From a virus (taxonomy: Duplodnaviria; Heunggongvirae; Uroviricota; Caudoviricetes): DNA of 13,650 nucleotides. This document shows, one piece after another, positions 1-13,650 of this stretch (positions within the stretch are counted from its first letter, which is position 1; each line of letters starts with the position of its first letter). Location of the stretch: positions 1 through 13,650 of the IMG/VR virus record IMGVR_UViG_3300029490_000278. One strand, 5' to 3'. Under the pieces are notes generated by a model. The model was not told where the DNA came from. It saw nothing but the letters and a program-made list of their open reading frames with translations, and did not search any database. The position numbers and the translations under genes are program-made.

Positions 1-1053
1 TTATTTCCCCACCAGCTCGTTTATCTCTTTCACTGTCTGGTTAAACCGCTCTGACTCAAGCTCAACACCTAAGGCCCGACGCCCCAGCGCCATTGCTGCT
101 TTTATTGTGGAACCGGATCCCATAAAAAAATCAGCAACCAGATCACCAGGTCGACTACTGGCATTGATTATTTGCCTGAGCATATCCGCCGGTTTCTCAC
201 ACGGATGTTTACCCGGGTAGAACTGAACGGGTTTATGCATCCAGACATCGGTATAAGGCACGGAGACTGATACGGAGAAATAGCGCCGGAGAGATTTAAA
301 CTCATCCAGCAATTCAGAATATTTGCGATTCAGTGAATCATAAGACGCCGCCAGCTGGTGGTGTGGTTGTTCCAGTTGTTGTTCCTGAAACTTCTCTGCC
401 GCTATACGGGAAAACAGTGCCTGTAACTTCCGATAGTCAGCCTCATTCGGCAACTGCCACTGACTGGCACCAAACCAGTGGGAAACCATATTTTTCTTAC
501 CTGTGGCTTCGGCAATTTGTTTTGCCGTTATACCCAGTTCGGCACGAGCATCCCTGAAATACGATATCAGCGGTGCCATTATGTGCTGTTTGAGTTCCCT
601 TTCTTTTGCTGCATAGCCGTCACTTTTGCCGCGATATGGCCCCTGGTAATGTTCAGCAAACAGAACGCGCTCTGTGGCAGGAAAATATGCGCGCAGACTT
701 TCTTTATTACACCCATTCCAACGTCCGGACGGCTTCGCCCAGATGATATGGTTAAGCACGTTGAAACGTTCACGCATCATGATCTCAATATCAGATGCCA
801 GGCGATGCCCACAGAACAGGTAAAGGCTTCCGGCAGGTTTTAACACCCGCCAGAACTGGGCCAGACAGTGGTCCAGCCACTTAAGGTAATCTTCGTCCCC
901 TTTCCACTGATTGTCCCAGCCGTTGGGTTTCACCTTGAAGTACGGCGGATCGGTAACAATCAGGTCAATGGAATCATCAGGCAGGGACTGAATAAAATGC
1001 AGGCAATCAGCGTTGATTAAATCAACACTGTTTATTTTTACAGTATTTTTCAT
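1..1053 (-). CDS. DNA methyltransferase, amino-MTase type (N6-adenine or N4-cytosine), beta-class motif order
   Basis: 350-aa ORF. Motif IV DPPY near the N-terminus (LIVTDPPYF) and motif I FxGxG near the C-terminus (DFFMGSGST). ATG at 1051-1053; stop TAA is complement of bases 1-3, so the gene is complete within the window. No clear SD. Confidence 0.85.
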   Translation of the reverse strand: MKNTVKINSVDLINADCLHFIQSLPDDSIDLIVTDPPYFKVKPNGWDNQWKGDEDYLKWLDHCLAQFWRVLKPAGSLYLFCGHRLASDIEIMMRERFNVLNHIIWAKPSGRWNGCNKESLRAYFPATERVLFAEHYQGPYRGKSDGYAAKERELKQHIMAPLISYFRDARAELGITAKQIAEATGKKNMVSHWFGASQWQLPNEADYRKLQALFSRIAAEKFQEQQLEQPHHQLAASYDSLNRKYSELLDEFKSLRRYFSVSVSVPYTDVWMHKPVQFYPGKHPCEKPADMLRQIINASSRPGDLVADFFMGSGSTIKAAMALGRRALGVELESERFNQTVKEINELVGK

Positions 1054-1203
1054 GGATCAGTAAGCGTAACTCTGGTAGGCTCACTCTGCTTTTGCGCTAA
1101 AGCAGTGGGCCGTGGTTCGCTTGTGACCAGTAAGCATGAGCGAATGGCTGGCAGGTGCTACCAACACCCACCAGCCGCCCATTTTCACAGCAGGAAACCG
1201 CCA

Positions 1204-1407
1204 TTACTGGCAGCGTCTGAATTTATTCCCGTACCCGCCGTTATCCTTCGCCAGACCCGCCAGAACTAACTGAGTCAGTATTAACTGGCACCGGGCTTCG
1301 CTTACTCCGGTAGTTCTCGTCATCATGCGTGGCGTTACCCACTTGTCAGCAGGTAAGAAATGAAGGACTGCGGCGGCGGTTTCTGTCATATCTTGCTGTT
1401 TTAGCAT
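1204..1407 (-). CDS. Small helical protein (67 aa), possible winged-helix DNA-binding regulator
   Basis: SD AAGGGA about 8 nt upstream of the ATG at 1407; the in-frame upstream ATG at 1431 has no SD. Sequence resembles small phage regulators, but no diagnostic motif. Confidence 0.45.
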   Translation of the reverse strand: MLKQQDMTETAAAVLHFLPADKWVTPRMMTRTTGVSEARCQLILTQLVLAGLAKDNGGYGNKFRRCQ

Positions 1408-1452
1408 GTCTTTTTCCCTTCTGGTTAACATGACATACCAATAACTCTTGTC

Positions 1453-1479
1453 TAAAAAGCCAGCAAGATAAAAAGCCAG
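1453..1479. repeat. Two 11-bp direct repeats TAAAAAGCCAG (1453-1463 and 1469-1479)
   Basis: Exact repeat read directly from the sequence, 16-bp periodicity, lying between the candidate terminator at 1529-1551 and the start of the small - strand gene. Role unknown. Confidence 0.6.
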
Positions 1480-1528
1480 TATTCACGACCACCAGCGTGT
1501 TTACTGTACTGCACCAGGTTTACAGGTA

Positions 1529-1551
1529 CAAAAAAACCGCTCAGCGGCGGG
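1529..1551 (-). terminator. Candidate intrinsic terminator on the - strand (short GC stem plus 7-U tract)
   Basis: + strand reads caAAAAAAACCGCTCAGCGGCGGG. On the - strand this is a short CCGC/GCGG stem followed by UUUUUUU (1530-1536). The stem is short, so this is weak. Confidence 0.3.
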
Positions 1552-1599
1552 TTTAAGTTGTGTGGCGAAGTAACCACTCTTAACATAATACAATACTTT

Positions 1600-1653
1600 T
1601 TGCGTACGCGTTAATAATTCTATATTATACAAGAAAAACAAGCTGGAAGACAA
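1600..1653. promoter_or_regulatory. AT-rich intergenic region with candidate divergent sigma70 promoters
   Basis: + strand: TTGCGT (1600-1605), 17-nt spacer, TATTAT (1623-1628), upstream of the OLD-like gene. - strand: TTGTCT (complement of 1648-1653), 18-nt spacer, TATAAT (complement of 1624-1629). Pattern match only. Confidence 0.25.
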
Positions 1654-1658
1654 TTAAA

Positions 1659-3437
1659 GTGAGTGAAATCATAAAGTTAAAAGGGCTAATGAATACAAAT
1701 GCTATTGAGCCGTTCATTCGCCATATACGGTTTCCGTATTTTAAAAATCTTGAAGAATATAGCACTATACATTTTCACTATCCTATTACTGCATTAGTTG
1801 GTCAAAATGGAACCAATAAAAGCTCAGTATTACGTGCATTATATGGTTCTCCAAATAATTATTCCTTAGGAAATCTTTGGTTTTCAACTGATCTAGACGA
1901 GATTAAAGATGGTGGTCGTTCTAGATTTATTTATGGATACTATGATTCCGCATCTAAAGATGTTGTTGAAGTAATAAAAACAAGGATTGTAGACAAGGAG
2001 GATCCTGATTTATGGGAAACTTCGAGACCTCTAACTAAAGATGGTATGAAAAAAATACCAACAGATATTATTTCGCCAAATCAGCAAAAATCACGCTGGA
2101 AACAGATAGACAAAATTGTCACATATATTGATTTTAGAGCTTCGATCAGTGCATTCGATAAATTCTTTTATCATTCGGACTTTGATCTTTATCCAAAGAA
2201 AAATCACCTGAGAAAAAGAAGCCATCTTCTTAAAGAGATAATAGATAAAGGCCTAACATCATACAAGCCCTTTAAAGGTAAAAAAGAAAGGTTGTATAAG
2301 AATGAATTACTTTCTCAAGAGAAGGTAGAAATCATCAGCGATATACTTGGTAGACCTTACAAAACAATTAGACTTATTGAGCATGCCTTATTTACAAACA
2401 ATAAGGCTTCAACCGTTATTTTAGAGTCTCATAGTCTCAACTACTCCGAGGCTTTTGCAGGAAGTGGGGAGTTTGCAGTAACTATTCTCGTAAATCAAAT
2501 TGTTAACGCGCCAACAGCATCATTAATTCTTTTAGATGAACCCGAAGTCTCACTTCATCCAGCAGCACAGTTTAAATTGATGTCTTTTCTAAATAAGATT
2601 TGCTTAAAAAACAAACATCAAATTGTTATTTCAACACACTCATCATCTATAGTTAGCCAACTACCTAAGGAAGCCATAAAACTTTTTAATCTTAATTCAA
2701 ACTCAGGGAAAGTTAGTATAGTTGAAAACGTTAGCCCTGAGGAAGCTTTCTTTACGCTTGGAGACCGACTATCAAAAAAAACTATCTTTGTAGAAGATAA
2801 ACTGGCTAAAAAATTCGTTGAGAAGGCTTTAAAATCAGGAGGTCCTGCCCTAGCCAATACATTTGATGTTATATATTGCCCAGCTGGTGCAAGCACATTA
2901 TTAGGTAATATGATTGTCTCATTATTTTTATCAAGAGTTGATAATGCGGTATTTTTATTGGATGGTGATCAGAAGACAAGCCATGATTTCATTACATCAG
3001 CCTTAATACCAAGCAGTGAAGATAATTCTTTAAATGAAAAAATAAAAAATATTCTTGGGTGTGAAATTAAAATACCAACTGATGGGCATGGTGGAACTCC
3101 AAATAAACAGCAGAAGATTCAACTTCAGCGTGATTTCATTGATTTTTCATATAATTATGTAGGGTATTTACCTATCATTAATCCAGAAACTTTTTTGATT
3201 GACAATCTTCCGGCTTTTTACTCCGATATGATTAAAGATTTAAACTTATCAAAACTATCACCAAAATCAATAATTGCAGAAATATGTAAAAGAGACATAG
3301 AAAATAACGTTATAACTTCTGATGATATTTTCGCAACACAAATCAGGATACTAACCCGAATACCTGAGAATCATGTCGCATTTTCTGAAACGAGAGAAAT
3401 GCTGAAATTTTTCCTTGAACATGGTAAGATAAGATAA
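1659..3437 (+). CDS. OLD-family nuclease: N-terminal ABC-type ATPase plus C-terminal TOPRIM domain
   Basis: 592-aa ORF. Walker A GQNGTNKS (res 48-55), signature-like AGSGE, Walker B LILLDEPEVSLHP (D293/E294), H-loop STHS, TOPRIM glutamate in TIFVEDK (E379) and DxD in FLLDGDQ (D434/D436). Start is GTG at 1659; an in-frame ATG at 1689 is the alternative. Visibly AT-rich relative to flanks. Confidence 0.8.
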   Translation: MSEIIKLKGLMNTNAIEPFIRHIRFPYFKNLEEYSTIHFHYPITALVGQNGTNKSSVLRALYGSPNNYSLGNLWFSTDLDEIKDGGRSRFIYGYYDSASKDVVEVIKTRIVDKEDPDLWETSRPLTKDGMKKIPTDIISPNQQKSRWKQIDKIVTYIDFRASISAFDKFFYHSDFDLYPKKNHLRKRSHLLKEIIDKGLTSYKPFKGKKERLYKNELLSQEKVEIISDILGRPYKTIRLIEHALFTNNKASTVILESHSLNYSEAFAGSGEFAVTILVNQIVNAPTASLILLDEPEVSLHPAAQFKLMSFLNKICLKNKHQIVISTHSSSIVSQLPKEAIKLFNLNSNSGKVSIVENVSPEEAFFTLGDRLSKKTIFVEDKLAKKFVEKALKSGGPALANTFDVIYCPAGASTLLGNMIVSLFLSRVDNAVFLLDGDQKTSHDFITSALIPSSEDNSLNEKIKNILGCEIKIPTDGHGGTPNKQQKIQLQRDFIDFSYNYVGYLPIINPETFLIDNLPAFYSDMIKDLNLSKLSPKSIIAEICKRDIENNVITSDDIFATQIRILTRIPENHVAFSETREMLKFFLEHGKIR

Positions 3438-3463
3438 ATTTTAGATTATTATAGAGACAGATC

Positions 3464-4498
3464 ATGAAGAAAAAAATCAAAGTTTTTGACTTCTTTTCAG
3501 GATGCGGGGGAACAAGCAAAGGCCTTAAAGAGGCTGGGTGCGAAATTTTCTTCGGTCTCGATTATGATTATGACTCTGGTCAAACCTTTCAGGCAAATAA
3601 TCCTGATGCTATATTTTTTAATGAGGATATACGCTCCGTTAAGTTAAATGATTTATTTCAGCTTGTAAAAAAAGCGAAGCAAGACTCACATGTTTTGTTT
3701 TGTGGTTGTGCTCCATGTCAACCGTTCTCAAGGCAAAATAAAAATAAAAGCAAAGAAGATCCTCGAAGAGGATTATTAAACGAATTTGGTCGTTTTATCG
3801 AGTACTATTGTCCTGATTATGTACTGATAGAAAATGTTCCAGGATTACAAAAAGTTGATATTAACGATGGACCATTGCATGATTTTATAACTCTTCTGAA
3901 AAAGAAAGATTATAATTTAGCTTATGGTGTGATTCCCGCTTTATGGTACGGAGTGCCTCAAACCAGAGAGCGTTTTGTTCTTATGGCCTCACTTCATTCC
4001 CCAATCCATCTACCAGAGCGCACGCATAATGGCGAAGATATCCCATTTGCGACGGTAAGAGATTGGATCGGAAATATACCACCAATTGAGGCAGGTGAAT
4101 CACATCCTACATTACGAGATCATGTTAGTGCAAAACTCTCTGCTTTAAATCTTAAAAGAATTAAAGCAACGCCAGAGGGTAAAGGTCGAGAGTTTTGGCC
4201 TAAAGAGTTGTTACTTGAATGTCATAAAAACCATACAGGTCACAGCGATGTATATGGCCGATTAGCATGGGATAAACCTGCTAGTGGATTAACTACAAGA
4301 TGCATTAGTTACTCTAACGGAAGATTTGGCCATCCTGAGCAACACCGGGCAATTTCTGTTCGCGAGGCTGCACTGCTACAAACATTTCCATTGGATTATA
4401 TATTCATCGGTTCAATGCTTTCTAAAGCTAAACAAATTGGTAATGCAGTCCCACCTAAAATGGCGGAGTCTATAGGGCATGTTTTTATGAATATTTAG
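3464..4498 (+). CDS. DNA (cytosine-5)-methyltransferase, Dcm-type
   Basis: 344-aa ORF with the full C5-MTase motif set: I FDFFSGCGG, IV GCAPCQPFS (catalytic Cys), VI IENVPGL, VIII QTRERF, X QIGNAVPP. Starts 26 nt after the OLD-like stop on the same strand; AT-rich. Confidence 0.9.
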   Translation: MKKKIKVFDFFSGCGGTSKGLKEAGCEIFFGLDYDYDSGQTFQANNPDAIFFNEDIRSVKLNDLFQLVKKAKQDSHVLFCGCAPCQPFSRQNKNKSKEDPRRGLLNEFGRFIEYYCPDYVLIENVPGLQKVDINDGPLHDFITLLKKKDYNLAYGVIPALWYGVPQTRERFVLMASLHSPIHLPERTHNGEDIPFATVRDWIGNIPPIEAGESHPTLRDHVSAKLSALNLKRIKATPEGKGREFWPKELLLECHKNHTGHSDVYGRLAWDKPASGLTTRCISYSNGRFGHPEQHRAISVREAALLQTFPLDYIFIGSMLSKAKQIGNAVPPKMAESIGHVFMNI

Positions 4499-4518
4499 CT
4501 GGAGCGTAAGCTCCAGCT
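4497..4518. terminator. Perfect 9-bp inverted repeat with GTAA loop between convergent genes
   Basis: AGCTGGAGC-GTAA-GCTCCAGCT, read directly. It overlaps the C5-MTase stop (4496-4498) and ends 3 nt before the stop of the - strand Q-like gene (4522). No U-tract on either side. Confidence 0.4.
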
Positions 4519-4521
4519 TAC

Positions 4522-4863
4522 CTATAACATTGACATTACTCCCTCAACAAATCCCAAGGCGGATTGCAAATCCTTCCGGATAGTCCCGTCCGAACATTTC
4601 CGCTTCTTTGCAATTGTGCGGAGTGAAATACCTATAACAAAGTGAACAATGAGCAGCTCAAACTCATCTGGTTTATACTTTCGTAACCGAGCCACACAAC
4701 TGTCTACCATAATACCTTCGTCATCATCACACTGAATCCGGGACTTTTTGCCATGAGGTAAAAGCCCCTTAAAGCCAGCGGCTACCTGTTGCCAATCCAC
4801 ACCACTGTTTTCTGCCGCAGCCCATGCCCCCCAGCGGTCCAAAACTTCATACATATCACGCAT
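4522..4863 (-). CDS. Small Q-like late-gene antiterminator (tentative)
   Basis: 113 aa from the ATG at 4863, with SD GGAGAAA 5-6 nt upstream. Family assignment is from recalled similarity to small Q-type antiterminators and from position after the nin-like genes; no motif is diagnostic. Confidence 0.4.
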   Translation of the reverse strand: MRDMYEVLDRWGAWAAAENSGVDWQQVAAGFKGLLPHGKKSRIQCDDDEGIMVDSCVARLRKYKPDEFELLIVHFVIGISLRTIAKKRKCSDGTIRKDLQSALGFVEGVMSML

Positions 4864-4880
4864 CAACTTTCTCCACAAAA

Positions 4881-5876
4881 TCAGGCCAGCACGCCTATTG
4901 CCAGCGCACGATCGATAAAACGAAATATCAGCTCCAACTGGGAGCCATACTTCTCTTCAAATGCCACGGTATCCGCATGTAGTTCGTCGTGATGCTTTCT
5001 GCACAAAGGCAACACAAAGAGGTCATGCGCTTTTGTACCCATTCCCCCCTGACCGTGGCCTATCAGGTGGTGGGGATCATCAGCAGGCTTTCCACAACAT
5101 GCACACGGCTGTGTCTTAACCCAGCGCGTGTACTTTTCATTAACCCAGCGGCGACGTTTTGGGCGTAACATAAAAGACTCCGGCGACTTCGGATCCACTT
5201 TCAGCGCCAGCACTTTTTTCGCTTTATCCTGGATGATGCTGGTGGCAGGAACCGAAGGCACAAGGTCACTTTCCCGGGTAACAGACGGCACAACAGGCTT
5301 CGGTAATCTAAGTGCCTTACGGGCTGCACTTTCCGGTAAGGCATCCGCCAGGTCATTACGAATCAGCCACCAGCACAGTTCCGGCATTGTCACAACGTGA
5401 CTGTCATCAAAACCGAGATCCCGACGCACAACAGACAACACCCAGCGGGCACAGTTATCCGTTGCCATTGATTCCAGCCGTTCTGTGAACTGATCGCGCA
5501 GCTGGTTATCGCAGTGCCAGCACAGACGGATTGCGCCCGGAGCGTGTCGCATTGTGGTCATGTTCTCGCTGTGCCAGTCGGAATGAGGCCACTGGCAGCC
5601 TTTTTCACGAAGTAACCAGCTTTCAAGACATTCCACGCCACCAGCACGACGGATCACTGCCTCATTGCGGAACACGCCCCGAACGGCAGGATCATCCGCC
5701 AGCGGTTGTGATGCCGCGGGAACGGCACCACTGGCGAAAGATGAATAACGCTCCGGCTCAGGCTCCAGCAGGACACGCCCCTGCATAAATAGGGGCATCA
5801 GCTCTGAACCTGGTCTGAACAATACGATCCCCATACGCGGGGCAATTTCAGGGGTCAGTAGTGCTCTCACGGTCAC
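4881..5876 (-). CDS. Phage nin-region protein with C-terminal Cys/His (HNH-like or zinc-binding) motif, DUF968-like (tentative)
   Basis: 331-aa ORF. C-terminus carries CACCGKPADDPHHLIGHG...LPLCRKHHDELH. The GTG at 5876 overlaps the upstream TGA stop (GTGA), suggesting translational coupling; exact start is ambiguous. Confidence 0.6.
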   Translation of the reverse strand: MTVRALLTPEIAPRMGIVLFRPGSELMPLFMQGRVLLEPEPERYSSFASGAVPAASQPLADDPAVRGVFRNEAVIRRAGGVECLESWLLREKGCQWPHSDWHSENMTTMRHAPGAIRLCWHCDNQLRDQFTERLESMATDNCARWVLSVVRRDLGFDDSHVVTMPELCWWLIRNDLADALPESAARKALRLPKPVVPSVTRESDLVPSVPATSIIQDKAKKVLALKVDPKSPESFMLRPKRRRWVNEKYTRWVKTQPCACCGKPADDPHHLIGHGQGGMGTKAHDLFVLPLCRKHHDELHADTVAFEEKYGSQLELIFRFIDRALAIGVLA

Positions 5877-5877
5877 C

Positions 5878-6687
5878 TCAATGTACGGTATCGAGCAGCT
5901 TTAACAGCTCAGGGAATCGGGATTCGAAGAAATGCGGCTGCGTCTCGCGCGGATTTGCGGGACTGGTGATGTTCTTGCCGAACATGCAGCCTTTCGCTGT
6001 CAGTGACCAGAATTTTTTGATGTTGTTAATCGCGGTACGGCTGTATCGTTCGCGCTGCTCGACGATCCCCAGCTTCACCATCTGGTGATATGCCTGATTA
6101 GCTGTCAGGCGGATACCATACTGCTTCAGCAATGCACTCAGTGACAGCGTGGGGCGGCTTGAGCCATCAGGCGCGTCAGCAGGAGCATCAATGGCATAGC
6201 GCGGTGCCAGATTCGGTAAGCCAACAGCCTCCTGGAGTTTCTGACAGGCACCAAGCACTGAAGAGTTAGACAGGTTTAATTCCCGGCGCATAAAGTCCAG
6301 CAGAATCACACCAGCCTGCATCTTGTCAGCAGCCTGTCCGGATAATTTTTCCGGTGCGCTGGTTACCATGTCGAAAGTACGGATCACCTTCAGATGGAAT
6401 GACGGGCTGATCCACATTGCATAGGCATACACCAGTTCTTTGCAGACATACGTCCCCTGGTTATTTCCGCCATTAATGACGCTAACTGGTTGATTTTGTT
6501 CCAGAGGCGGAATTCCACCCTCGGTGAAAAGTTGTTCAATCAATTCACAGGTTTGCTTATTGGAGAGCCAGTATTTCGGGCGGTTTTTTTGTTCTCCCCC
6601 GGCTGCCCTGTGCAGATCGTTCAGGCTGTAACGCCCATAAGCATCACGACGAACTTCAATACCATCAATGACCATCAGATTATTCAT
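5878..6687 (-). CDS. KilA-N domain protein (antirepressor-like)
   Basis: 269 aa from the ATG at 6687, with SD GAGGAG about 8 nt upstream. N-terminal region (MVIDGIEVRRDAYGRYSLNDLHRAAG...YWLSNKQTCELIEQL...GTYVCKELVYAYAMWISPSFHLKVIRTFD) fits the KilA-N fold pattern. Confidence 0.65.
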   Translation of the reverse strand: MNNLMVIDGIEVRRDAYGRYSLNDLHRAAGGEQKNRPKYWLSNKQTCELIEQLFTEGGIPPLEQNQPVSVINGGNNQGTYVCKELVYAYAMWISPSFHLKVIRTFDMVTSAPEKLSGQAADKMQAGVILLDFMRRELNLSNSSVLGACQKLQEAVGLPNLAPRYAIDAPADAPDGSSRPTLSLSALLKQYGIRLTANQAYHQMVKLGIVEQRERYSRTAINNIKKFWSLTAKGCMFGKNITSPANPRETQPHFFESRFPELLKLLDTVH

Positions 6688-6706
6688 ACTTCGTTTCTCC
6701 TCTTGA

Positions 6707-6952
6707 TCAGGCGGCTGCACCCGCCGGTTTCTCGTACTTACTGATAGTGATCTCGACCTTCCCTTCCGGGATAACCGGTCCCCACTCCACCAACATTCTT
6801 TTCACTTGGCTGTCGTCTTCCCACACACCCGCGTGGGTCAGGGCGTCAAACAGCGCCTTGTTATAGTTGTCCAGATCGCGGATCCGGTTACGGGTCTTCG
6901 CGTTTTTCGGTGTACGTGCTGACGGACGGTGATAAGCGCAGGGAAAGCTCAT
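6707..6952 (-). CDS. rusA: RusA-like Holliday-junction resolvase, conserved C-terminal core with short or atypical N-terminus
   Basis: C-terminal 55 residues (RIRDLDNYNKALFDALTHAGVWEDDSQV...GKVEITISKYEK) match the RusA catalytic region, including the DLDN and DD acidic residues. The ORF can be extended to an ATG at 7066 (119 aa), but that N-terminus overlaps the O-like gene in another frame and lacks the usual RusA N-terminal motif. Confidence 0.5.
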   Translation of the reverse strand: MSFPCAYHRPSARTPKNAKTRNRIRDLDNYNKALFDALTHAGVWEDDSQVKRMLVEWGPVIPEGKVEITISKYEKPAGAAA

Positions 6953-7769
6953 CCCATTTTTCCCGCAACTTCGACGGGCTGAGCACGTTACGGCACCAGA
7001 ACGGATCGCGGCTGACGCGGCTGTACATCTCGCAGATTTGTTTGTGAGTACGACCATCCTGTACACACATCAGGCGAATTTCGTTTGCCCAGGCTGTCCA
7101 GTTCGGTTCTTTGGGACGAACCACCTCGCCGTCACATTCGGCGGCTTGCTCGTACAGGGCGATGATTTTTTTCCAGAGCCACTGTGCGCAGGTCAAATCA
7201 TCCTGCGTTCCCCACTGGCGCTTTTTAGGGCTGAATACAACCGCATCAGGATGGCGAGTTAAAAAATCCTGTTCATCCGTCTGCGTGTCCGGTTGCGAAG
7301 CGTCCGGACGAGAAGGTTTTTTATCTGACGGATCATGTTTTGATTTTACTGACGGATCCCCGCCAGATTCTGACGGGTGAAAACCCGCTTTTTTGCCAGA
7401 TTTCGACGCATCAAATTTTGACGGGTCAGATTTTGATGCGTCAGATTTTGACGGGTCAGAATCTGACAGTTGAGAAAATGCCGCTGCCTGAAGCTTCGCA
7501 ACGTTAAGCTGATAAACATTCGACGCATTGCGGTTACCCTGGCGACGCGCCTTACGCGTTAACCAGCCTTCTGCTTCCAGCCGTGCGATAGCCGTTCTGA
7601 CGGTACTCATCCCCGCGCCAATCTGGCGGGCAATGGTTTCAATTGATGGCCAGCACACACCTTCGTCATTACTGAAATCAGCCAAGCGGGCCATAATTGC
7701 CACGCTGGATAATTTCATGCCTGACGCTGCGCAACCATCCCATACATAGCCGGTTAATTTAGTGCTCAT
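6888..7769 (-). CDS. Replication initiator, O-like (N-terminal winged-helix DNA-binding domain, repetitive acidic/Ser-rich linker)
   Basis: 293-aa ORF, ATG at 7769 with SD AGAGGT 6 nt upstream. N-terminal HTH-like region (SVAIMARLADFSNDEGVCWPSIETIARQIGAGMSTVRTAIARLEAEGWL). Linker (SDSDPSKSDASKSDPSKFDASKSG) is encoded by tandem 15-bp repeats. Sits in the O position of a lambdoid early-right operon. Confidence 0.6.
   Translation of the reverse strand: MSTKLTGYVWDGCAASGMKLSSVAIMARLADFSNDEGVCWPSIETIARQIGAGMSTVRTAIARLEAEGWLTRKARRQGNRNASNVYQLNVAKLQAAAFSQLSDSDPSKSDASKSDPSKFDASKSGKKAGFHPSESGGDPSVKSKHDPSDKKPSRPDASQPDTQTDEQDFLTRHPDAVVFSPKKRQWGTQDDLTCAQWLWKKIIALYEQAAECDGEVVRPKEPNWTAWANEIRLMCVQDGRTHKQICEMYSRVSRDPFWCRNVLSPSKLREKWDELSLRLSPSVSTYTEKREDP
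7399..7458. repeat. Four tandem 15-bp iteron-like repeats (consensus GATTTTGACGGGTCA) inside the O-like gene; candidate origin
   Basis: Units at 7399-7413, 7414-7428, 7429-7443 and 7444-7458, with degenerate copies at 7321-7335, 7366-7380 and 7459-7469. Each unit has internal dyad symmetry (TGAC..GTCA). Confidence 0.6.
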
Positions 7770-7778
7770 GACCGACCT

Positions 7779-8117
7779 CTATTTCCCTGAATTTACGACG
7801 AAACTGTTCGAGCGGGCTGAAGCACTCATGCTCATAGCCTTCACGGAGGTAGATAACCCGTTGTGTTTCCGGCTCCCAACGAATGACTCTGACGGGCACT
7901 CCGTAGTGATCTTTGAACCAGCGGTTAACTTGTCGCAAAGGACTGCCTCCTTCTGCCGGTTGAAATCCCCCACAGCCCACTCTGCAAAGCTGTGGGTTAC
8001 AATTTCCCTGTCACCTGGTACATTCACTGCATAGCAATACTCCACCTTCGCTTTTCCACCCGGTACAGGAAGCGCAATCAGTTGCGAGCGACGGTAGTGT
8101 GTTGTTAAACTGTTCAT
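7779..8117 (-). CDS. Hypothetical early protein (112 aa), possibly frameshifted
   Basis: ATG at 8117 overlaps the upstream stop (ATGA). A -1-frame ORF (7759-7980) continues from a C5/G5 homopolymer at 7967-7971 and would end just before the O-like start. Confidence 0.45.
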
Positions 8118-8677
8118 GCGTTAGTTTCTCCACAGTCACGACACGCCACGGCGCCCGGAGCTGCACACTCGCGGGCGTCATTACTTTCTGAAATGCAAAA
8201 AATTTTGTAGACCAGTGCTGCATGCTCCTGCAGCTTCGAAATTGAGAGGTACAACTCGTCGTTAATTGCTGTCTTCTCATGCGGTTCCACTACACCGTCT
8301 TCAATTGCTGAACGAATCTGTTTTGAATAACTGCCGATCTGTTCAATGACCTCCAGCAGGCGTTGGTTGATATCGGCGTTGTCCACATCCTCGACGTCAG
8401 GAAGAGACACAAAGACGCCATTTGCAGACTGCGCCACAGCATCAGCAATGAAGTGAGTGCCACCAGCACGCTGTAAAACCATTGCCCATCCCAGCGGGAA
8501 AATCTGATCGCCATCTGCACGAAGGCGGTTGAATAAAGCGTTTTCTGTTACATCGAGCCAGTCAGCCGCTTCAGCGTAACCACCCGGCAACGCCGCGATA
8601 GTTTTTCTGACAGCTTTCACGTACCACTCAGGCTGTTTTTCTATTTTCCAGTGATGCTTACCCACGATTAGCCTCAT
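8114..8677 (-). CDS. Early regulatory protein in the cII position (function tentative)
   Basis: 187-aa ORF directly downstream of the cro-like gene, ATG at 8677. Assignment is by synteny with lambdoid early-right operons; no diagnostic motif. Confidence 0.5.
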
Positions 8678-8708
8678 CGTTCTGTGGTTAAAAATTGAAA
8701 GTGTTCTG

Positions 8709-8909
8709 CTAATCTTTCGGATAGATATCCGGTCTTAAGTCAGATTTCGTAATTGCACCTGACGTGCATTGCTCAAGTTTTTTAGCCAGCACAAAACTGG
8801 CTTTTTTATAGCCATTGAAAACCAGCCGTAAGTAGCCAGGTGTTGAGCCAACTTTTCCGGCCAACTCGCCCTGCTGTTCTTTGGTTAAAGAGTCCCAATA
8901 CGCTTTCAT
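8709..8909 (-). CDS. Cro-like small HTH repressor
   Basis: 66 aa from the ATG at 8909, with SD GGAGGT 9 nt upstream. HTH-like sequence (LTKEQQGELAGKVGSTPGYLRLVFNG), divergent from the CI-like gene. The longer listed ORF (to 9212) runs antisense through the repressor gene and is rejected. Confidence 0.7.
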   Translation of the reverse strand: MKAYWDSLTKEQQGELAGKVGSTPGYLRLVFNGYKKASFVLAKKLEQCTSGAITKSDLRPDIYPKD

Positions 8910-8915
8910 ACAATA

Positions 8916-8982
8916 TGTACCTCCGGTGTACATATTACATGATTGAAATGAACCTTCAAGATACTTGTACCTTAACGGTACA
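8916..8982. promoter_or_regulatory. Immunity switch region: divergent promoters plus two TGTAC-N7-GTACA operator palindromes
   Basis: Operators at 8916-8932 (TGTAC ctccggt GTACA) and 8966-8982 (TGTAC cttaacg GTACA). - strand promoter: TTGAAG (complement of 8954-8959), 16-nt spacer, TAATAT (complement of 8932-8937). + strand candidate: TTGTAC (8965-8970), 17-nt spacer, TTTAAT (8988-8993). Confidence 0.55.
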
Positions 8983-8999
8983 AGGGTTTTAATTTCGTT

Positions 9000-9674
9000 A
9001 TGAAAACAATCCATGACATCCGGCGGTCTAACGCCAGAAAACTGAGAGATGGTGTTGGCGGGAATTCTTCCTTTGCCACTATGATTGATCGCGAGCCAAC
9101 CCAGACCAGCAGGTTTATGGGAGATGGTGCTACTAAAAATATCGGTGACAGCATGGCACGACACATCGAAAAATGTTTCGACCTGCCTGTCGGATGGCTC
9201 GATCAAGAACACCAGACAACGAACATCACAAAAAAACCTGATGTTTCAATCACTAATAAACAAATCACATTAGTCCCTGTCATATCATGGGTACAGGCCG
9301 GAGCATGGAAAGAAGTTGGATATTCTGAGGTTGATTTGAGCACAGCAGAAACGTATCCCTGCCCTGTACCCTGTGGGGAAATGACTTATATCTTGCGGGT
9401 GATAGGTGATTCAATGATTGATGAGTACCGCCCGGGAGACATGATTTTTGTCGATCCTGAAGTACCTGCCTGCCACGGTGACGACGTTATTGCATTGATG
9501 CACGATACAGGTGAAACCACCTTCAAAAGGTTGATAGAAGATGGGACACAGCGTTATCTCAAAGCGTTAAACCCAAACTGGCCTGAGCCTTACATTAAGA
9601 TCAACGGTAATTGCTCTATAATTGGTACAGTGATTTTCTCAGGAAAACCAAGAAGATACAAAATCAAAGCCTAA
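9000..9674 (+). CDS. CI-like phage repressor with LexA-type S24 peptidase domain
   Basis: 224-aa ORF with an N-terminal XRE-type HTH and a C-terminal S24 domain (Ser in VIGDSM, Lys in TFKRL). No SD before the ATG at 9000. Confidence 0.85.
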   Translation: MKTIHDIRRSNARKLRDGVGGNSSFATMIDREPTQTSRFMGDGATKNIGDSMARHIEKCFDLPVGWLDQEHQTTNITKKPDVSITNKQITLVPVISWVQAGAWKEVGYSEVDLSTAETYPCPVPCGEMTYILRVIGDSMIDEYRPGDMIFVDPEVPACHGDDVIALMHDTGETTFKRLIEDGTQRYLKALNPNWPEPYIKINGNCSIIGTVIFSGKPRRYKIKA

Positions 9675-9686
9675 TCAATGTTTATG

Positions 9687-9709
9687 AACCTGCTTCGGCA
9701 GGTTTTTTT
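9687..9709 (+). terminator. Rho-independent terminator downstream of the repressor gene
   Basis: 7-bp stem AACCTGC/GCAGGTT with a UUCG tetraloop, followed by a 7-T run (9703-9709), 13 nt after the repressor stop. Confidence 0.8.
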
Positions 9710-9713
9710 ATAC

Positions 9714-9758
9714 TTGACAATGTACCTTTGAGATACATAATGTACCCAAGCGAAACAA
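9714..9758 (+). promoter_or_regulatory. pL-like promoter with embedded operator
   Basis: -35 TTGACA (9714-9719), 16-nt spacer, -10 CATAAT (9736-9741). Operator-like TGTAC-N7-aTACA at 9721-9737 sits between the -35 and -10; a weaker copy (TGTAC at 9742-9746) follows. Confidence 0.55.
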
Positions 9759-9908
9759 CGAACAGGCAGGACGCCCACGAAGTAGCCGCCTGGGGCATAT
9801 GAAGTCCAGGATGATTCGTTAGCAACAAAAAAGCGCCCTACAGGACGCTTAGCTCTTTAACAATCTGGTCCCCATCAACAAGTAACTGATAACTTGAGGA
9901 GATGTGAA

Positions 9909-10115
9909 ATGCACAAAACAGAACCCAAAATCGTCGCGCCTGGCTACACAGATGAGGAAATTTATGAGTGGATGACAAAGAAGCTGGCAGCTATAAACCA
10001 GCTTCGTGAAGTGCTGTCTTATCGACAGGAAACAATAGACTCCTTAAAAAAACTGGATCAGGAAATCACGGTTTTATCACAGGATGTTACTTTAGATATT
10101 GTGCAGACAAATTAG
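9909..10115 (+). CDS. Small hypothetical early protein (68 aa, predicted helical)
   Basis: ATG at 9909 with SD GAGGAG 7 nt upstream; first gene after the pL-like promoter. No recognisable domain. Confidence 0.4.
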   Translation: MHKTEPKIVAPGYTDEEIYEWMTKKLAAINQLREVLSYRQETIDSLKKLDQEITVLSQDVTLDIVQTN

Positions 10116-10521
10116 GATCCCATTCATTTTCGTCAAAATCATCAAAATGATGAATTTGTGATCTCCAGTCTCGATAATCTAAAAATTTCTGGGCGGTTAC
10201 GCTTATTTTATCAAGTGTGAGTTCATCCTGAATTGAAAGAAGAAGTTCATCAAATTTCATCTCATTAATCTGTTTTGGCATCCAGTGATGCTTCATCAGA
10301 ATAAGGTGAACCAGAGCCTTTTTCCCATTCAACTGATTATAGGGAGTGCCGAATTTCTTCCGGTGCTCATGTAAGACAAGGTCCAAAAGAGTAAGTAATG
10401 TTGCCCTTGATTCAACTTTGCTTATTTCGACTGATGACACTACCCCACTGATTTCAATGCCCCGATACTTTCCAACATTTTCACAGTGGGATTTGTACAG
10501 CGTATAGATATTACCGGACAT
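10087..10521 (-). CDS. AT-rich hypothetical protein (144 aa) on the opposite strand of the early-left operon; candidate moron
   Basis: ATG at 10521 with SD AAGGAA about 6 nt upstream. Visibly lower GC than its neighbours. 3' end overlaps the convergent 9909-10115 gene by 29 nt. No motif recognised. Confidence 0.5.
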   Translation of the reverse strand: MSGNIYTLYKSHCENVGKYRGIEISGVVSSVEISKVESRATLLTLLDLVLHEHRKKFGTPYNQLNGKKALVHLILMKHHWMPKQINEMKFDELLLSIQDELTLDKISVTAQKFLDYRDWRSQIHHFDDFDENEWDPNLSAQYLK

Positions 10522-10807
10522 TTCTTTTCCTTTTGCGTTGTTGGGGATAACCAGATTAACCGAATCCTTGTTGTTGGGGAATAACTAGGTCCACCTCGCC
10601 TGATGTGGCTAAAAGCAGGCACATAACAGCTAAGTATTTTCAACCAGAGAGAATCCTTAGCGTTGTGGTGAATGCGGCTCAGCGCACGCGGGTTAAGGTT
10701 GAGGCTGACAGTCGACCTTCTGTGGATACCCACCCGCCTGGTGTGCAACCTTCGCCAGGCACCGGGAGGCACCCGGCACCACAACTTTATGCTGTGTGTA
10801 GTCTTGG

Positions 10808-10852
10808 CGGTACCAGCTTGTACCCTTGCTTCCGGCTGGTACCGTCCTTTTT
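10808..10852 (+). terminator. Candidate intrinsic terminator or structured RNA 3' end
   Basis: Perfect 10-bp stem CGGTACCAGC (10808-10817) / GCTGGTACCG (10835-10844) with a 17-nt loop, followed by TCC then TTTTT (10848-10852). Confidence 0.4.
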
Positions 10853-10941
10853 ACAAAACAGAGAAGAGCATCACCGGACGACGGGCTCATAACCCAATCC
10901 ATCCGGGCGGCTGCCACCGCAGGTGTTCTTCTCTGTTTTGT
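10853..10941. repeat. Perfect 15-bp inverted repeat enclosing a 59-nt GC-rich segment
   Basis: ACAAAACAGAGAAGA (10853-10867) and its exact reverse complement TCTTCTCTGTTTTGT (10927-10941). An 11-bp direct repeat ATCACCGGACG also occurs at 10870-10880 and 10996-11006. Confidence 0.6.
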
Positions 10942-11065
10942 GGAGAAACTAACCGCCCCTACGGGGGCATTTATGGAAATGTAATTGACTCAATAATCAC
11001 CGGACGGTGAGGGCTTCCTTTTACCGGAATTCAGCGCGGTGCAGCGCATATACGTGGAGAACAAA

Positions 11066-11602
11066 ATGTCATTTATTAAAACTTTTTCCGGGAAGCATTT
11101 TTATTATGACAGGATAAATAAAGACGACATCGTTATTAACGATATCGCGGTTTCCCTTTCAAATATCTGTCGCTTTGCAGGACATCTTTCACACTTCTAC
11201 AGTGTCGCCCAACATGCGGTGCTTTGCAGCCAGCTGGTGCCGCAGGAATTTGCTTTTGAAGCTTTAATGCATGATGCAACAGAAGCATATTGCCAGGACA
11301 TCCCCGCACCACTGAAACGACTTCTTCCTGACTATAAACGGATGGAAGAAAAAATAGACGCCGTAATCCGTGAGAAATACGGGTTACCTCCTGTTATGAG
11401 CACGCCAGTGAAATATGCCGATCTCATTATGCTGGCAACCGAACGCCGCGATCTCGGGCTTGATGATGGCTCTTTCTGGCCTGTGCTGGAAGGTATCCCG
11501 GCAACAGAGATGTTCAACGTGATTCCACTGGCTCCAGGCCATGCCTACGGGATGTTTATGGAACGCTTTAACGAATTATCGGAGTTACGCAAATGCGCAT
11601 GA
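11066..11602 (+). CDS. HD-domain phosphohydrolase (5'-deoxynucleotidase-like)
   Basis: 178 aa from the ATG at 11066, with SD GGAGA 5 nt upstream. HD-superfamily motifs: H in FYSVAQHAV, HD in ALMHDATEAY, D in DLIMLATERRD. Stop overlaps the next start (ATGCGCATGA). Confidence 0.8.
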   Translation: MSFIKTFSGKHFYYDRINKDDIVINDIAVSLSNICRFAGHLSHFYSVAQHAVLCSQLVPQEFAFEALMHDATEAYCQDIPAPLKRLLPDYKRMEEKIDAVIREKYGLPPVMSTPVKYADLIMLATERRDLGLDDGSFWPVLEGIPATEMFNVIPLAPGHAYGMFMERFNELSELRKCA

Positions 11603-11955
11603 ATGTTTTCGAAATGGAAGGGTTTCTTCGTGGGAGATGTGTACCGCGAGATCTGAAAGTGAATGAAACGGATGCTGAATACCTGGTGCGTAAATTCGAT
11701 GCGCTTGAAGCTAAATGTGCAGCACAGGAAAACAAAGTAATACCAGTGTCAACTGAACTGCCACCAGCAAATGAAAGTGTTTTGTTATTCGATGCTAACG
11801 GAGAAGGCTGGCTAATTGGCTGGCGTTCTCTCTGGTACACCTGGGGACAAAAAGAAACCGGAGAATGGCAGTGGACATTTCAGGTCGGGGACCTTGAAAA
11901 CGTCAATATCACTCACTGGGCAGTAATGCCAAAAGCACCGGAGGCTGGAGCATAA
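11593..11955 (+). CDS. DUF551-like phage protein (tentative)
   Basis: 120-aa ORF translationally coupled on both sides (shares TAATG with the next gene). Domain call is from recalled sequence pattern only. Confidence 0.5.
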   Translation: MRMNVFEMEGFLRGRCVPRDLKVNETDAEYLVRKFDALEAKCAAQENKVIPVSTELPPANESVLLFDANGEGWLIGWRSLWYTWGQKETGEWQWTFQVGDLENVNITHWAVMPKAPEAGA

Positions 11956-12260
11956 TGACCACTTTTACCGACAAAGAACTGATTAAAGAAATTAAAGAGC
12001 GTATCAGCAGCCTTGACGTGCGAGACGATATTGAGCGCCGTGCTTATGAAATCGCACTCCTATCTCTGGAAGTAGAACCAGATGAACGCGAAGCTTATGA
12101 ATTATTCATGGAAAAGCGTTTCGGTGACTTAGTAGATCGTCGGAGAGCAAAAAACGGCGATAACGAATACATGGCATGGGATATGACTCTCGGTTGGATC
12201 GTCTGGCAGCAACGAGCTGGTATCCATTTTTCAACAATGTCACAACAAGAGGTGAAATAA
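11955..12260 (+). CDS. Hypothetical phage protein (101 aa)
   Basis: Start ATG overlaps the upstream stop (TAATG) and its stop overlaps the excisionase start (TAATG), so it is part of a tightly coupled operon. Confidence 0.45.
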   Translation: MTTFTDKELIKEIKERISSLDVRDDIERRAYEIALLSLEVEPDEREAYELFMEKRFGDLVDRRRAKNGDNEYMAWDMTLGWIVWQQRAGIHFSTMSQQEVK

Positions 12261-12610
12261 TGGAGCCATACAGCCTCACACTCGATGAGGCCTGTCATTT
12301 TCTCAAGATATCCAGACCGACTGCCATTAACTGGATACGCACAGGGCGTCTTCAGGCAACACGCAAAGATCCCACTAAGAATAAATCTCCTTACCTCACA
12401 ACACGACAAGCCTGCATTGCGGCTCTTCAGTCTCCGCTGCATACTGTCCAGGTGAGCGCGGGTGATGGCATAACAGAGGAAAGAAAATGTCACTCTTCCG
12501 CAGAGGTGAAATATGGTACGCCAGTTTCACATTGCCGAACGGTAAAAGATTTAAACAGTCTCTTGGAACAAAGGACAAAAGGCAGGCGACAGAACTCCAT
12601 GACAAGCTAA
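12260..12610 (+). CDS. xis: Excisionase-family HTH DNA-binding protein
   Basis: HTH region [26 protein letters not shown] immediately upstream of the integrase. Start taken as the ATG at 12260; the ORF track starts the frame at 12176. The frame runs to 12610, overlapping int by 124 nt. Confidence 0.55.
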
Positions 12611-13650
12611 AGGCTGAAGCATGGCGGGTCAGCAAACTTGGTGAAATACCTGATATAACGTTCGAGGAAGCTTGTGTCAGGTGGCTTGAAGAGAAAGCAC
12701 ATAAAAAATCACTGGACGATGACAAAAGCCGGATCGGATTCTGGCTTCAACATTTCGCAGGAATGCAACTAAGAGACATTACTGAATCAAAAATTTATTC
12801 AGCAATGCAGAAAATGACGAACCGGCGTCATGAGGAAAACTGGAAACTCAGGGCAGAAGCATGCAGAAAAAAAGGGAAACCTGTTCCAGAATACACGCCA
12901 AAACCAGCGTCCGTTGCAACGAAGGCTACGCATCTTTCATTTATAAAGGCCCTACTAAGAGCCGCAGAGCGTGAATGGAAAATGCTGGATAAGGCACCAA
13001 TTATTAAAGTGCCTCAACCAAAGAATAAACGGATCCGCTGGCTGGAGCCCCATGAAGCACAAAGGCTGATTGATGAATGTCCGGAGCCATTAAAGTCTGT
13101 TGTTGAATTTGCACTGGCAACAGGCTTAAGACGCTCGAACATCATCAACCTTGAATGGCAACAAATAGATATGCAGCGCCGGGTGGCATGGATAAACCCG
13201 GAAGAGAGTAAATCAAACCGCGCAATTGGCGTTGCGCTGAATGATACTGCATGTCGCGTATTGAAAAAACAAATCGGGAATCATCACCGTTGGGTATTTG
13301 TGTACAAGGAAAGCTGTACCAAACCAGACGGAACGAAAGCGCCAACAGTAAGGAAGATGCGGTATGACGCAAACACAGCCTGGAAAGCGGCGCTGAGACG
13401 GGCTGGTATTGATGATTTCAGATTTCACGACTTGAGACACACCTGGGCAAGTTGGCTGGTTCAAGCCGGAGTCCCGTTGTCAGTGTTACAGGAAATGGGA
13501 GGCTGGGAGTCTATCGAAATGGTTCGTCGATATGCTCACCTTGCACCTAATCACCTTACCGAACACGCACGGCAAATAGACTCGATCCTGAACCCATCGG
13601 TCCCAAATTTGTCCCAGTCAAAAAATAAGGAAGGTACTAATGATGTGTAA
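12487..13650 (+). CDS. int: Tyrosine recombinase, phage integrase
   Basis: 387-aa ORF with SD GAGGAA 6 nt upstream. Catalytic signature is present: R in [18 protein letters not shown] box, terminal RRYAHL with the Tyr nucleophile. From memory it resembles the e14 IntE family (unverified). Confidence 0.95.

Follow-up and report, generated by a model that had tools for sequence, protein, structure and literature searches.

A probable Q-dependent late promoter and first terminator beyond a two-gene cassette in a lambdoid prophage of the Q21/Q933W type

INTRODUCTION

In phage lambda, a constitutive late promoter (PR') directly past the antiterminator gene Q gives a short leader of 194 nucleotides (nt), the 6S RNA, that is terminated at tR'; the Q site sits between the -35 and -10 elements, the lysis genes come next, and no cassette separates Q from PR'. 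The region studied here, positions 1530 to 1628 of a 13,650-nt stretch of Caudoviricetes DNA (IMG/VR record IMGVR_UViG_3300029490_000278, positions 1 to 13,650; the whole stretch is referred to below as the window), is predicted to share with lambda the layout of promoter, short leader RNA, Q site, and lysis genes, although its Q belongs to a family unrelated to that of lambda (PF03589). A lambdoid prophage of Escherichia coli strain PM4 matches the window with 100% identity, and in the window a cassette of two genes lies between Q and the region. We consider it probable, at roughly three chances in four, that 1530 to 1628 holds the late promoter on which Q acts, together with the first terminator, in a lambdoid prophage that resembles the Stx phages and has an antiterminator of the Q21/Q933W family, with the cassette located between Q and PR'. 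Promoter and terminator are in themselves ordinary and already known for these Shiga toxin (Stx) phages, where a region of the same kind governs the release of the toxin, while the insertion hotspot between Q and PR' and a divergent promoter shared by its cassettes are modestly new.

Two described systems are closer to the window than lambda. The PF06530 family of antiterminators, that of Q21 and Q933W, includes one member, Q21, with a fold similar to region 4 of sigma factors (sigma-R4), which binds a Q-binding element (QBE) within -40 to -1 of the promoter, the site consisting of two 8-bp subsites in direct repeat (Yin, Kaelber & Ebright 2019, 10.1101/651190). The Q21 regulatory cassette and the window have in common PF06530, a DNA element inside the promoter (in the window a clade-specific candidate), and a terminator (predicted in the window) shortly downstream. 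However, Q and PR' are adjacent in the Q21 system, while 2.9 kb of oppositely oriented genes lie between them in the window, and where Q21 has a direct-repeat QBE and a pause element, the window has an 8-bp palindrome and no convincing pause element. The second system is the PR'-tR' region of prophages Sp5 and Sp15 (933W type), the source of the regulatory RNA StxS. In Sp5 of strain Sakai, the PR' start was mapped by differential RNA sequencing (dRNA-seq), and a 258-nt RNA ends at tR' (Sy, Lan & Tree 2020, PMC7547250). Sp5 and Sp15 have the same Q family as the window and likewise late genes downstream, and their -10 element, start, first 54 nt, 5' hairpin, and hairpin followed by seven U residues (hairpin-U7) are homologous to those of the window. 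On the other hand, the Sp5 Q is just about 46% identical to that of the window, the palindrome is TTTACGATCGTAAA in Sp5 and GCGTACGC in the window, and Sp5 has no cassette between Q and PR'.

As for the inserted genes, the morons of lambdoid phages (a concept of Hendrix and Juhala) are autonomous units with their own promoter and terminator, a deviant guanine-plus-cytosine (GC) content, and absence from close relatives. They lie inside the late operon, whereas the cassette of the window is located 5' of PR' and faces away from it. Hotspots of phage defence genes have also been described, with conserved flanks and interchangeable low-GC cassettes that carry known or candidate defence systems (2022; PMC9122126), and the slot between Q and PR' resembles them in all these respects. 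Those hotspots belong to another phage family and another position, whereas the present slot lies between an antiterminator gene and its target promoter, and, unlike theirs, the cassettes of one Q clade share a promoter that overlaps the late promoter.

RESULTS AND DISCUSSION

The probable late promoter and its predicted start site

An earlier, sequence-only reading of the window had tentatively placed the late promoter and a terminator for a short transcript within 1529 to 1653, with the cassette inserted between Q and the promoter. Every feature that it listed (the layout of the cassette, two promoter matches, a hairpin with a U7 tract, and a pair of direct repeats) is present in the DNA, and both the late promoter and the terminator appear to lie in 1530 to 1628, a control region of about 100 bp that is devoid of annotation and was found in 856 of 5426 complete E. 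coli genomes. However, the - strand promoter hexamers that it named are not conserved between cassettes, and the comparison with Sp5 points to a different pair.

Apart from the start and the 3' end of the Sp5 PR' RNA, a cut by RNase E between GU and AUU at +173 has been published (PMC7547250). These coordinates fit the sequence NC_002695.2 solely with a shift of +142; unshifted, none of the three features coincides. With the shift, +1 is the A of gataagAgtgg, 7 nt past TATCAT, +173 is the U of the GU/AUU cut, and +258 coincides with the final U of a strong terminator, and it was from these three internal checks that the shift was derived. It partly relies on what we take to be the older Sp5 coordinates; the sequence itself supports the three checks. 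The Sp5 start aligns base for base with A1578 of the window, and nt 1 to 54 of StxS-L correspond to window 1578-1525 with 82% identity (E value of 1e-8). Because the mapped start aligns there, we identify PR' with TTAACG-18-TATTAT (1614-1585), and we infer from this homology both its activity and a start at A1578 rather than near 1620, where the sequence-only reading had expected it.

Six loci were compared on the Q-sense strand. A common block begins near window 1613-1624 and continues downstream, while 5' of it the sequence varies with whatever separates the block from Q. Differing opposite-strand genes occupy this gap in E. coli strain 3045, mEp460_4F5, and Stx2a_1447, and phage 1720a-02 has no insert, its homologous block beginning 3 bp past the Q stop. 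The latter phage bears out the idea that the cassette was inserted between Q and the late promoter, and what cassette-less relatives have next to Q is the opposite of the unrelated sequence that had been named as speaking against it. When IMG/VR was scanned for exact copies of the 23-nt motif of the initially transcribed region, 120 loci came up, of which the 109 with a complete Q are the sample used below. In this sample, which was itself selected on that motif, the initially transcribed region does not differ between Q clades. Within the Q clade of the window, the PR' block is kept beside 16 different cassettes, and conservation stops just past the -35 element.

The promoter named by the sequence-only reading was TTGTCT-18-TATAAT on the - strand (1653-1624), which would give a start near 1617 and a terminated RNA of 70 to 90 nt. 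It is the top hexamer match of the interval (10/12), yet we regard it as very unlikely to be the late promoter. It lies in cassette-specific DNA, where the other 15 insert classes of the clade are unrelated, and in cassette-less phages the matching position falls within the coding sequence of Q. Moreover, its TATAAT (1629-1624) is nothing other than the complementary strand of the conserved -10 in the predicted + strand cassette promoter (see below), and the mapped Sp5 start aligns to 1578 and not to 1617.

Q and its candidate binding palindrome

The Q protein of the window covers the whole PF06530 profile (E value of 1.8e-43). It also has weak matches to the Q21 chains 6jnx and 6p18 (E value of 0.0017) and to region 4 of extracytoplasmic function (ECF) sigma factors (E values of 8.7e-4 in Pfam and 6e-6 in NCBIfam), which agree with the published sigma-R4-like fold of Q21. 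Along the 109 loci, the element in the spacer between -35 and -10 tracks the Q clade, and each of the four Q clades has its own palindrome, with its center at -27.5 or -28. The 42 loci (16 insert classes) with a Q at least 82% identical to that of the window have CGCGTACGCA, which is also found in SfII, whose Q is 70% identical. A Q at 48 to 55% identity goes with CGCGGTCCGCA, the Sp5-like clade with a Q of 126 amino acids (aa) and 42 to 47% identity goes with TTTAC(A/G)ATCGTAAAAA, and the clade with a 128-aa Q has CTTGTGTTATAACAAAAA. In Stx1_499, a Q of the window clade and GCGTACGC are joined to a StxS leader of the Sp5 type. Since this locus, and SfII as well, keeps both Q and palindrome despite the swap of leader, the palindrome travels with Q and not with the leader. 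This pattern makes GCGTACGC a candidate QBE. Phages with divergent Q alleles have been described in published comparisons as being without PR' (PMC10562709, PMC6266700), but the clade-specific palindromes suggest that they instead have a PR' with a different Q site.

Transcript leader and candidate first terminator

The PR' transcript would begin with a small hairpin (Table 1) that is predicted in the window, in Sp5, and in locus L003, and whose stem is invariant in 17 distinct sequences, so that there is no covariation. Shortly after it comes the candidate first tR', which was picked by the terminator scan and which RNAfold folds as predicted. The region has more terminator-like sites than expected (11 versus 3.5 ± 1.9). 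All 71 distinct downstream sequences have the hairpin with its U tract; the stem is kept, the loop varies, and both leader types include it. Judging from its distance to A1578, the terminated RNA would be of about 49 nt, whereas the sequence-only reading had put the stem and U7 70 to 90 nt downstream of the promoter.

The two leader types split inside the tR' hairpin and cross the Q clades. In type A, the one found in the window, U7 is followed by the leader, an open reading frame (ORF) of 67 aa, and a methylase gene. In type B (strain WP4-S18 and SfII), UUUUGUCGUUU follows, and the sequence then continues to the holin gene. Compared with Sp5, the window is without the +55 to +258 part, including the 74-nt regulatory RNA StxS, which is the Hfq-binding 3' end of the 258-nt transcript; the window has the 67-aa ORF and an intact adenine methylase where Sp5 has only a 3' remnant of the methylase. 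When the StxS regulator was looked for, the alignment of the window was limited to nt 1-54 of StxS-L, and the StxS-S part matched just the 11-nt terminator arm. Of the late adenine methylase, the part that Sp5 keeps is the 3' end, at 1604-1725 of locus L007 (taken from NC_002695.2), which corresponds to window 32-102. It thus looks as if the leader with StxS had arisen in Sp5 from the window-type arrangement by replacement or deletion.

Further downstream, the TAAAAAGCCAG direct repeats (CTGGCTTTTTA on the - strand) are present as had been noticed earlier (two matches versus 0.01 expected, a number reached in 0 of 200 shuffles), but their pairing is not conserved, nor do they amount to a convincing terminator. 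Each copy matches the 3' arm and U tract of the Sp5 tR' over merely 10 to 11 nt, the first copy is degenerate in leaders of the 1720a-02 type, and one copy is deleted in Stx2a_1447. As terminators they were rejected: the first has a weak stem (z of -0.23), the second is without a complementary arm and RNAfold puts its U run in a loop, and neither copy is conserved among relatives. The fold of the whole leader was no better than those of shuffles (z of -1.09), and Rfam (E ≤ 1) over 1000-5000 gave only a chance match to a Pseudomonas small RNA at 3627-3703. A 50-aa ORF on the - strand (1501-1653) covers the promoter, start site, and terminator and is almost certainly not a gene.

Table 1. Positions of predicted and annotated features in the window
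Feature	Position	Strand	Details
N6/N4 DNA methyltransferase, second late gene	1-1053	-	PF01555, E value 1.4e-42
First late-transcript ORF, 67 aa	1204-1407/1431	-	RefSeq WP_000917724.1, hypothetical protein
Direct repeats TAAAAAGCCAG (CTGGCTTTTTA on - strand)	1453-1463, 1469-1479		two exact matches
Weak second terminator-like site	1465-1496	-	scan match; RNAfold -7.4 kcal/mol, z -0.23
Candidate first tR'	1530-1548	-	hairpin 1548-1536 and seven U 1536-1530; about +31 to +49 of PR' RNA
5' hairpin of PR' transcript	1562-1577	-	+2 to +17, GUGGU/GCCAC, 5 bp
PR' (predicted)	1585-1614	-	-35 TTAACG (1614-1609), 18-bp spacer, -10 TATTAT (1590-1585); predicted start A1578
Predicted cassette promoter	1600-1628	+	-35 TTGCGT (1600-1605), 17 bp, -10 TATTAT (1623-1628); predicted start about 1635
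Palindrome GCGTACGC, candidate QBE	1609-1602		8 bp, -31 to -24 of PR'; overlaps -35 of cassette promoter
Cassette ORF1, OLD-family nuclease	1659-3437	+	GTG start codon at 1659
Cassette ORF2, C5 cytosine DNA methyltransferase	3464-4498	+	
GC-rich hairpin of 9 bp where the Q and methylase genes converge	4497-4518		RNAfold -17.2 kcal/mol, z -4.33; 0/200 shuffles as good
Q	4522-4878	-	longest ORF 118 aa; RefSeq annotation 4522-4863, "antiterminator Q family protein"

Proposed mechanism and points against it

We propose that 1530 to 1628 would act as a compact back-to-back control region in a prophage with an antiterminator of the Q21/Q933W family. Without Q, the PR' RNA would form its 5' hairpin and halt at the hairpin-U7 (1548-1530) after about 49 nt, with some polymerases probably passing to the weaker sites ahead of the 67-aa ORF and of the adenine methylase and lysis genes that come after it. 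Q, encoded 2.9 kb away, would bind GCGTACGC at -31 to -24 and load onto the polymerase in a Q21-like manner, after which the terminator would be ignored. A + strand promoter in the same region would drive the two-gene cassette, with transcription ending at the hairpin at 4497-4518, just short of the Q stop.

Several observations weigh against this interpretation. The PR' hexamers are weak (9/12 in the promoter scan, with an 18-bp spacer), promoter-like matches in 1000-5200 are about as many as chance would give (11 found versus 11.4 ± 2.7 expected), and the assignment of the start to A1578 depends on the 82% identity over 54 nt. We did not find a clear sigma-dependent pause element in the window, where +7 to +12 reads TACTTC, without the key final T (the same position is TACATT in Sp5 and TACTTT in Stx1_499). 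The palindromic form of GCGTACGC differs from the direct-repeat site of Q21, and the correlation between Q clade and palindrome could come partly from linkage, as no insert class is common to two clades in the sample. RNAalifold gave no compensatory changes in the 5' hairpin or the tR' hairpin, and the latter has just five pairs in the window. Finally, the reported 3' end in Sp5 is +258 and not at the equivalent hairpin near +50; either this hairpin is leaky in Sp5 or the short product was not captured.

The short stem and the Sp5 end at +258, reached despite an equivalent and stronger hairpin-U7 at about +27 to +50, would also be explained if PR' is correct but its hairpin-U7 (1548-1530) serves for pausing or for the loading of Q, or leaks, and the late genes are blocked further down, at 1496-1465, by Rho, or in some other way. 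We give some weight to this possibility while considering it unlikely. The element at 1548-1530 is a canonical stem with seven U and the sole terminator-like element common to both leader types, type B leaders continue from it to the holin gene, and the downstream candidates are weak (z of -0.23) and unconserved. In addition, a 50-nt RNA may have been missed by the published libraries.

A last point against a functional control region concerns the PM4 prophage, which contains an IS1A (PM4 locus 6369-7066, outside the window) between the holin-side genes and the lysozyme gene. Given this insertion, the PM4 copy may be defective, perhaps in lysis, and the region could be a decayed relic in which PR' and the terminator are free of selection. 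We find this improbable, as six genomes carry the block at 100% identity and hundreds more in a near-identical form, it matches inducible phages such as mEp460, SfII, and the Stx phages, and intact ORFs remain for Q, the late methylase, and both cassette genes.

The predicted cassette promoter and the far-end hairpin

The + strand match TTGCGT-17-TATTAT, mentioned only in passing by the sequence-only reading, turned out to be the better supported of its two promoters on account of its conserved spacing, although its score (8/12) is under the scan threshold. Of the 16 insert classes that go with the window's Q clade and are unrelated to each other, 13 have TTGCGT followed after exactly 17 nt by TAnnnT (at least 4/6), and 2 more have it after 18 nt, against a background of about 0.04 per position. 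The -10 hexamers vary from cassette to cassette (TAGAAT, TACAAT, TAAACT, TATATT, TAAAAT, TATAAT, and TATTAT). Outside the -35 of PR', the top conservation is found at -45, -46, and -50, which are T1, A2, and T6 of the cassette -10, together with an A-tract at about -42 to -39. A shared cassette promoter was rejected for the second Q clade (GCGGTCCGC), in which few cassettes have a correctly spaced -10 and several are without TTG. This shared divergent promoter and the clade-specific palindromes merit follow-up.

The predicted starts of PR' and of the cassette promoter are about 57 bp apart, from which we infer that the two promoters are not occupied simultaneously, that is, that their occupancy is mutually exclusive. 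One could speculate further that the slot is a dedicated, as yet undescribed site for the defence cassettes of lambdoid phages of the Q21/Q933W family, and that the binding of Q at induction silences the cassette promoter, so that the prophage turns its own defence off on entering late lytic growth. If so, the -35 TTGCGT would lie inside the Q-bound palindrome of every cassette of the window clade, and the polymerase at PR', above all with Q, would shut the cassette promoter. This scenario is rather unlikely.

At the other end of the cassette, the strong hairpin between the converging genes probably terminates the cassette and shields it from the transcription of Q, judging from its predicted stability and position. 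Most of the other insert classes listed for the window's Q clade have their own GC hairpin directly past the Q stop, and the last 10 or so codons of Q vary by insert class. The hairpin also bears on a different location of PR', directly past Q as in lambda, within the 3' end of the methylase, where TAGAAA-18-TATAAT (4424-4395) is a 10/12 promoter-like match that would start a 2.9-kb antisense run to 1530. Such a promoter would have the strong hairpin in its vicinity, directly past the Q stop; it would lie in cassette coding DNA that relatives with other cassettes do not have, and the conserved block specific to the Q clade is located at 1585-1614. We therefore find this arrangement scarcely credible and retain PR' at 1585-1614.

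A hotspot between Q and PR'

In the 109 loci, between 84 nt and 3790 nt separate Q from the initially transcribed motif. The slot is empty in 12 of them, with the block directly past the Q stop, and the remainder fall into 30 insert classes. The inserts have a GC content of 0.29 to 0.42, and in about 27 of the 30 classes the main genes face away from PR'. SfII and Stx1_499 have additional cassettes at the same slot. With so many interchangeable cassettes beside conserved flanks, the slot between Q and PR' is a genuine hotspot, in agreement with the sequence-only reading, which had called it a moron hotspot.

PADLOC matched the two genes of the window and 8 of the 17 other classes tested, about half of the tested cassettes being unmatched. 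The matches included KwaB with a membrane partner (Kiwa; E value of 2e-150), PDC-S20 (2e-176), and PDC-S60 (1e-97), and others were an NsnA-like protein with a Dcm methylase, PDC-M53A, PDC-S42, and an HNH protein. These matches indicate that much of the cargo is putatively defence-related, which makes the slot a practical place to search for new defence genes. We did not find a described hotspot at this position in the literature, the coverage of which was incomplete and makes this weak evidence of novelty.

Some inserts are of another kind. Among those of L010, L023, and L031, from Q clades at 42 to 47% identity, the short ones encode small predicted lipoproteins (148 and 159 aa), and one class has instead a 214-aa protein on the strand of Q itself. 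These inserts look closer to classical morons than to defence systems.

The genes of the cassette

The cassette is made up of an OLD-family ATPase-Toprim nuclease (ORF1) and a C5 methyltransferase (ORF2). ORF1 has an N-terminal ABC ATPase domain (AAA_21, E value of 4.1e-17; AAA_15, 3.4e-15) with invariant Walker-type motifs, and its PADLOC matches were HEC-04 (2.9e-34), ATPase-Toprim_I-B (1.6e-27), and Old (1.7e-14). No Pfam family, Toprim included, matched residues 351-592. However, E379 and D380 and the D435-G-D437 motif are invariant in 24 homologues, and the AlphaFold2 model (predicted local distance difference test score of 86.5) has as best folds in the PDB those of GajA (8u7i, 2.5e-13) and the T. 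scotoductus OLD protein (6p74, 3.4e-13), with some 620 to 630 columns aligned, nearly the full length. We accepted the Toprim domain on the basis of these invariant residues and the fold comparison, with Pfam silent. The template modeling scores were low (0.33 to 0.37), the orientations of the domains being different.

ORF2 was matched by PF00145 (E value of 6e-55), MTase_II of PADLOC (6.8e-86), and TIGR00675 dcm (4.9e-40). A Microbulbifer homologue of ORF1 (43% identical), chromosomal and outside any prophage, likewise precedes a C5 methylase. The OLD nuclease may be the restriction arm of a restriction-modification-like defence system with the C5 methylase. Among the described OLD proteins, those of class 1 occur on their own, those of class 2 beside a UvrD-like helicase, and those of class 3 beside a retron (2023 review, PMC10568477). 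The pairing with a C5 methylase fits none of the three, and there is no methylase-linked class in that review (PMC10568477), which places the pair outside the OLD classes reviewed so far.

The cassette as a whole fits the definition of a moron: it has its own predicted promoter and terminator and a GC content of 0.35 versus about 0.5, and it is absent or replaced in relatives. Along the window, GC is 0.29 to 0.43 over 1650-4500 versus 0.46 to 0.57 in the flanking DNA.

Neighboring genes and origin of the prophage

Early genes, a KilA-N gene, a DUF968 gene, and the Q antiterminator gene are located on the - strand of the window. Past its left end, the PM4 locus continues with the holin gene essD and the lysozyme, terminase, and portal genes, so that the late genes are downstream of PR'. 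The 67-aa ORF had only faint winged-helix matches of the MarR/TrmB type (MarR_2, E value of 0.045). In type A leaders it is invariably 5' of the N6/N4 methylase, for which it could encode a small regulator. In strain EC4, an IS903B is found within the region that matches window 1000-5000. The immunity region (8100-9700) is e14-like (ymfK, ymfT, and ymfL in RefSeq) and its neighbors are CPS-53-like (yfdN and yfdP-R), the prophage being a mosaic of modules of K-12 cryptic prophages.

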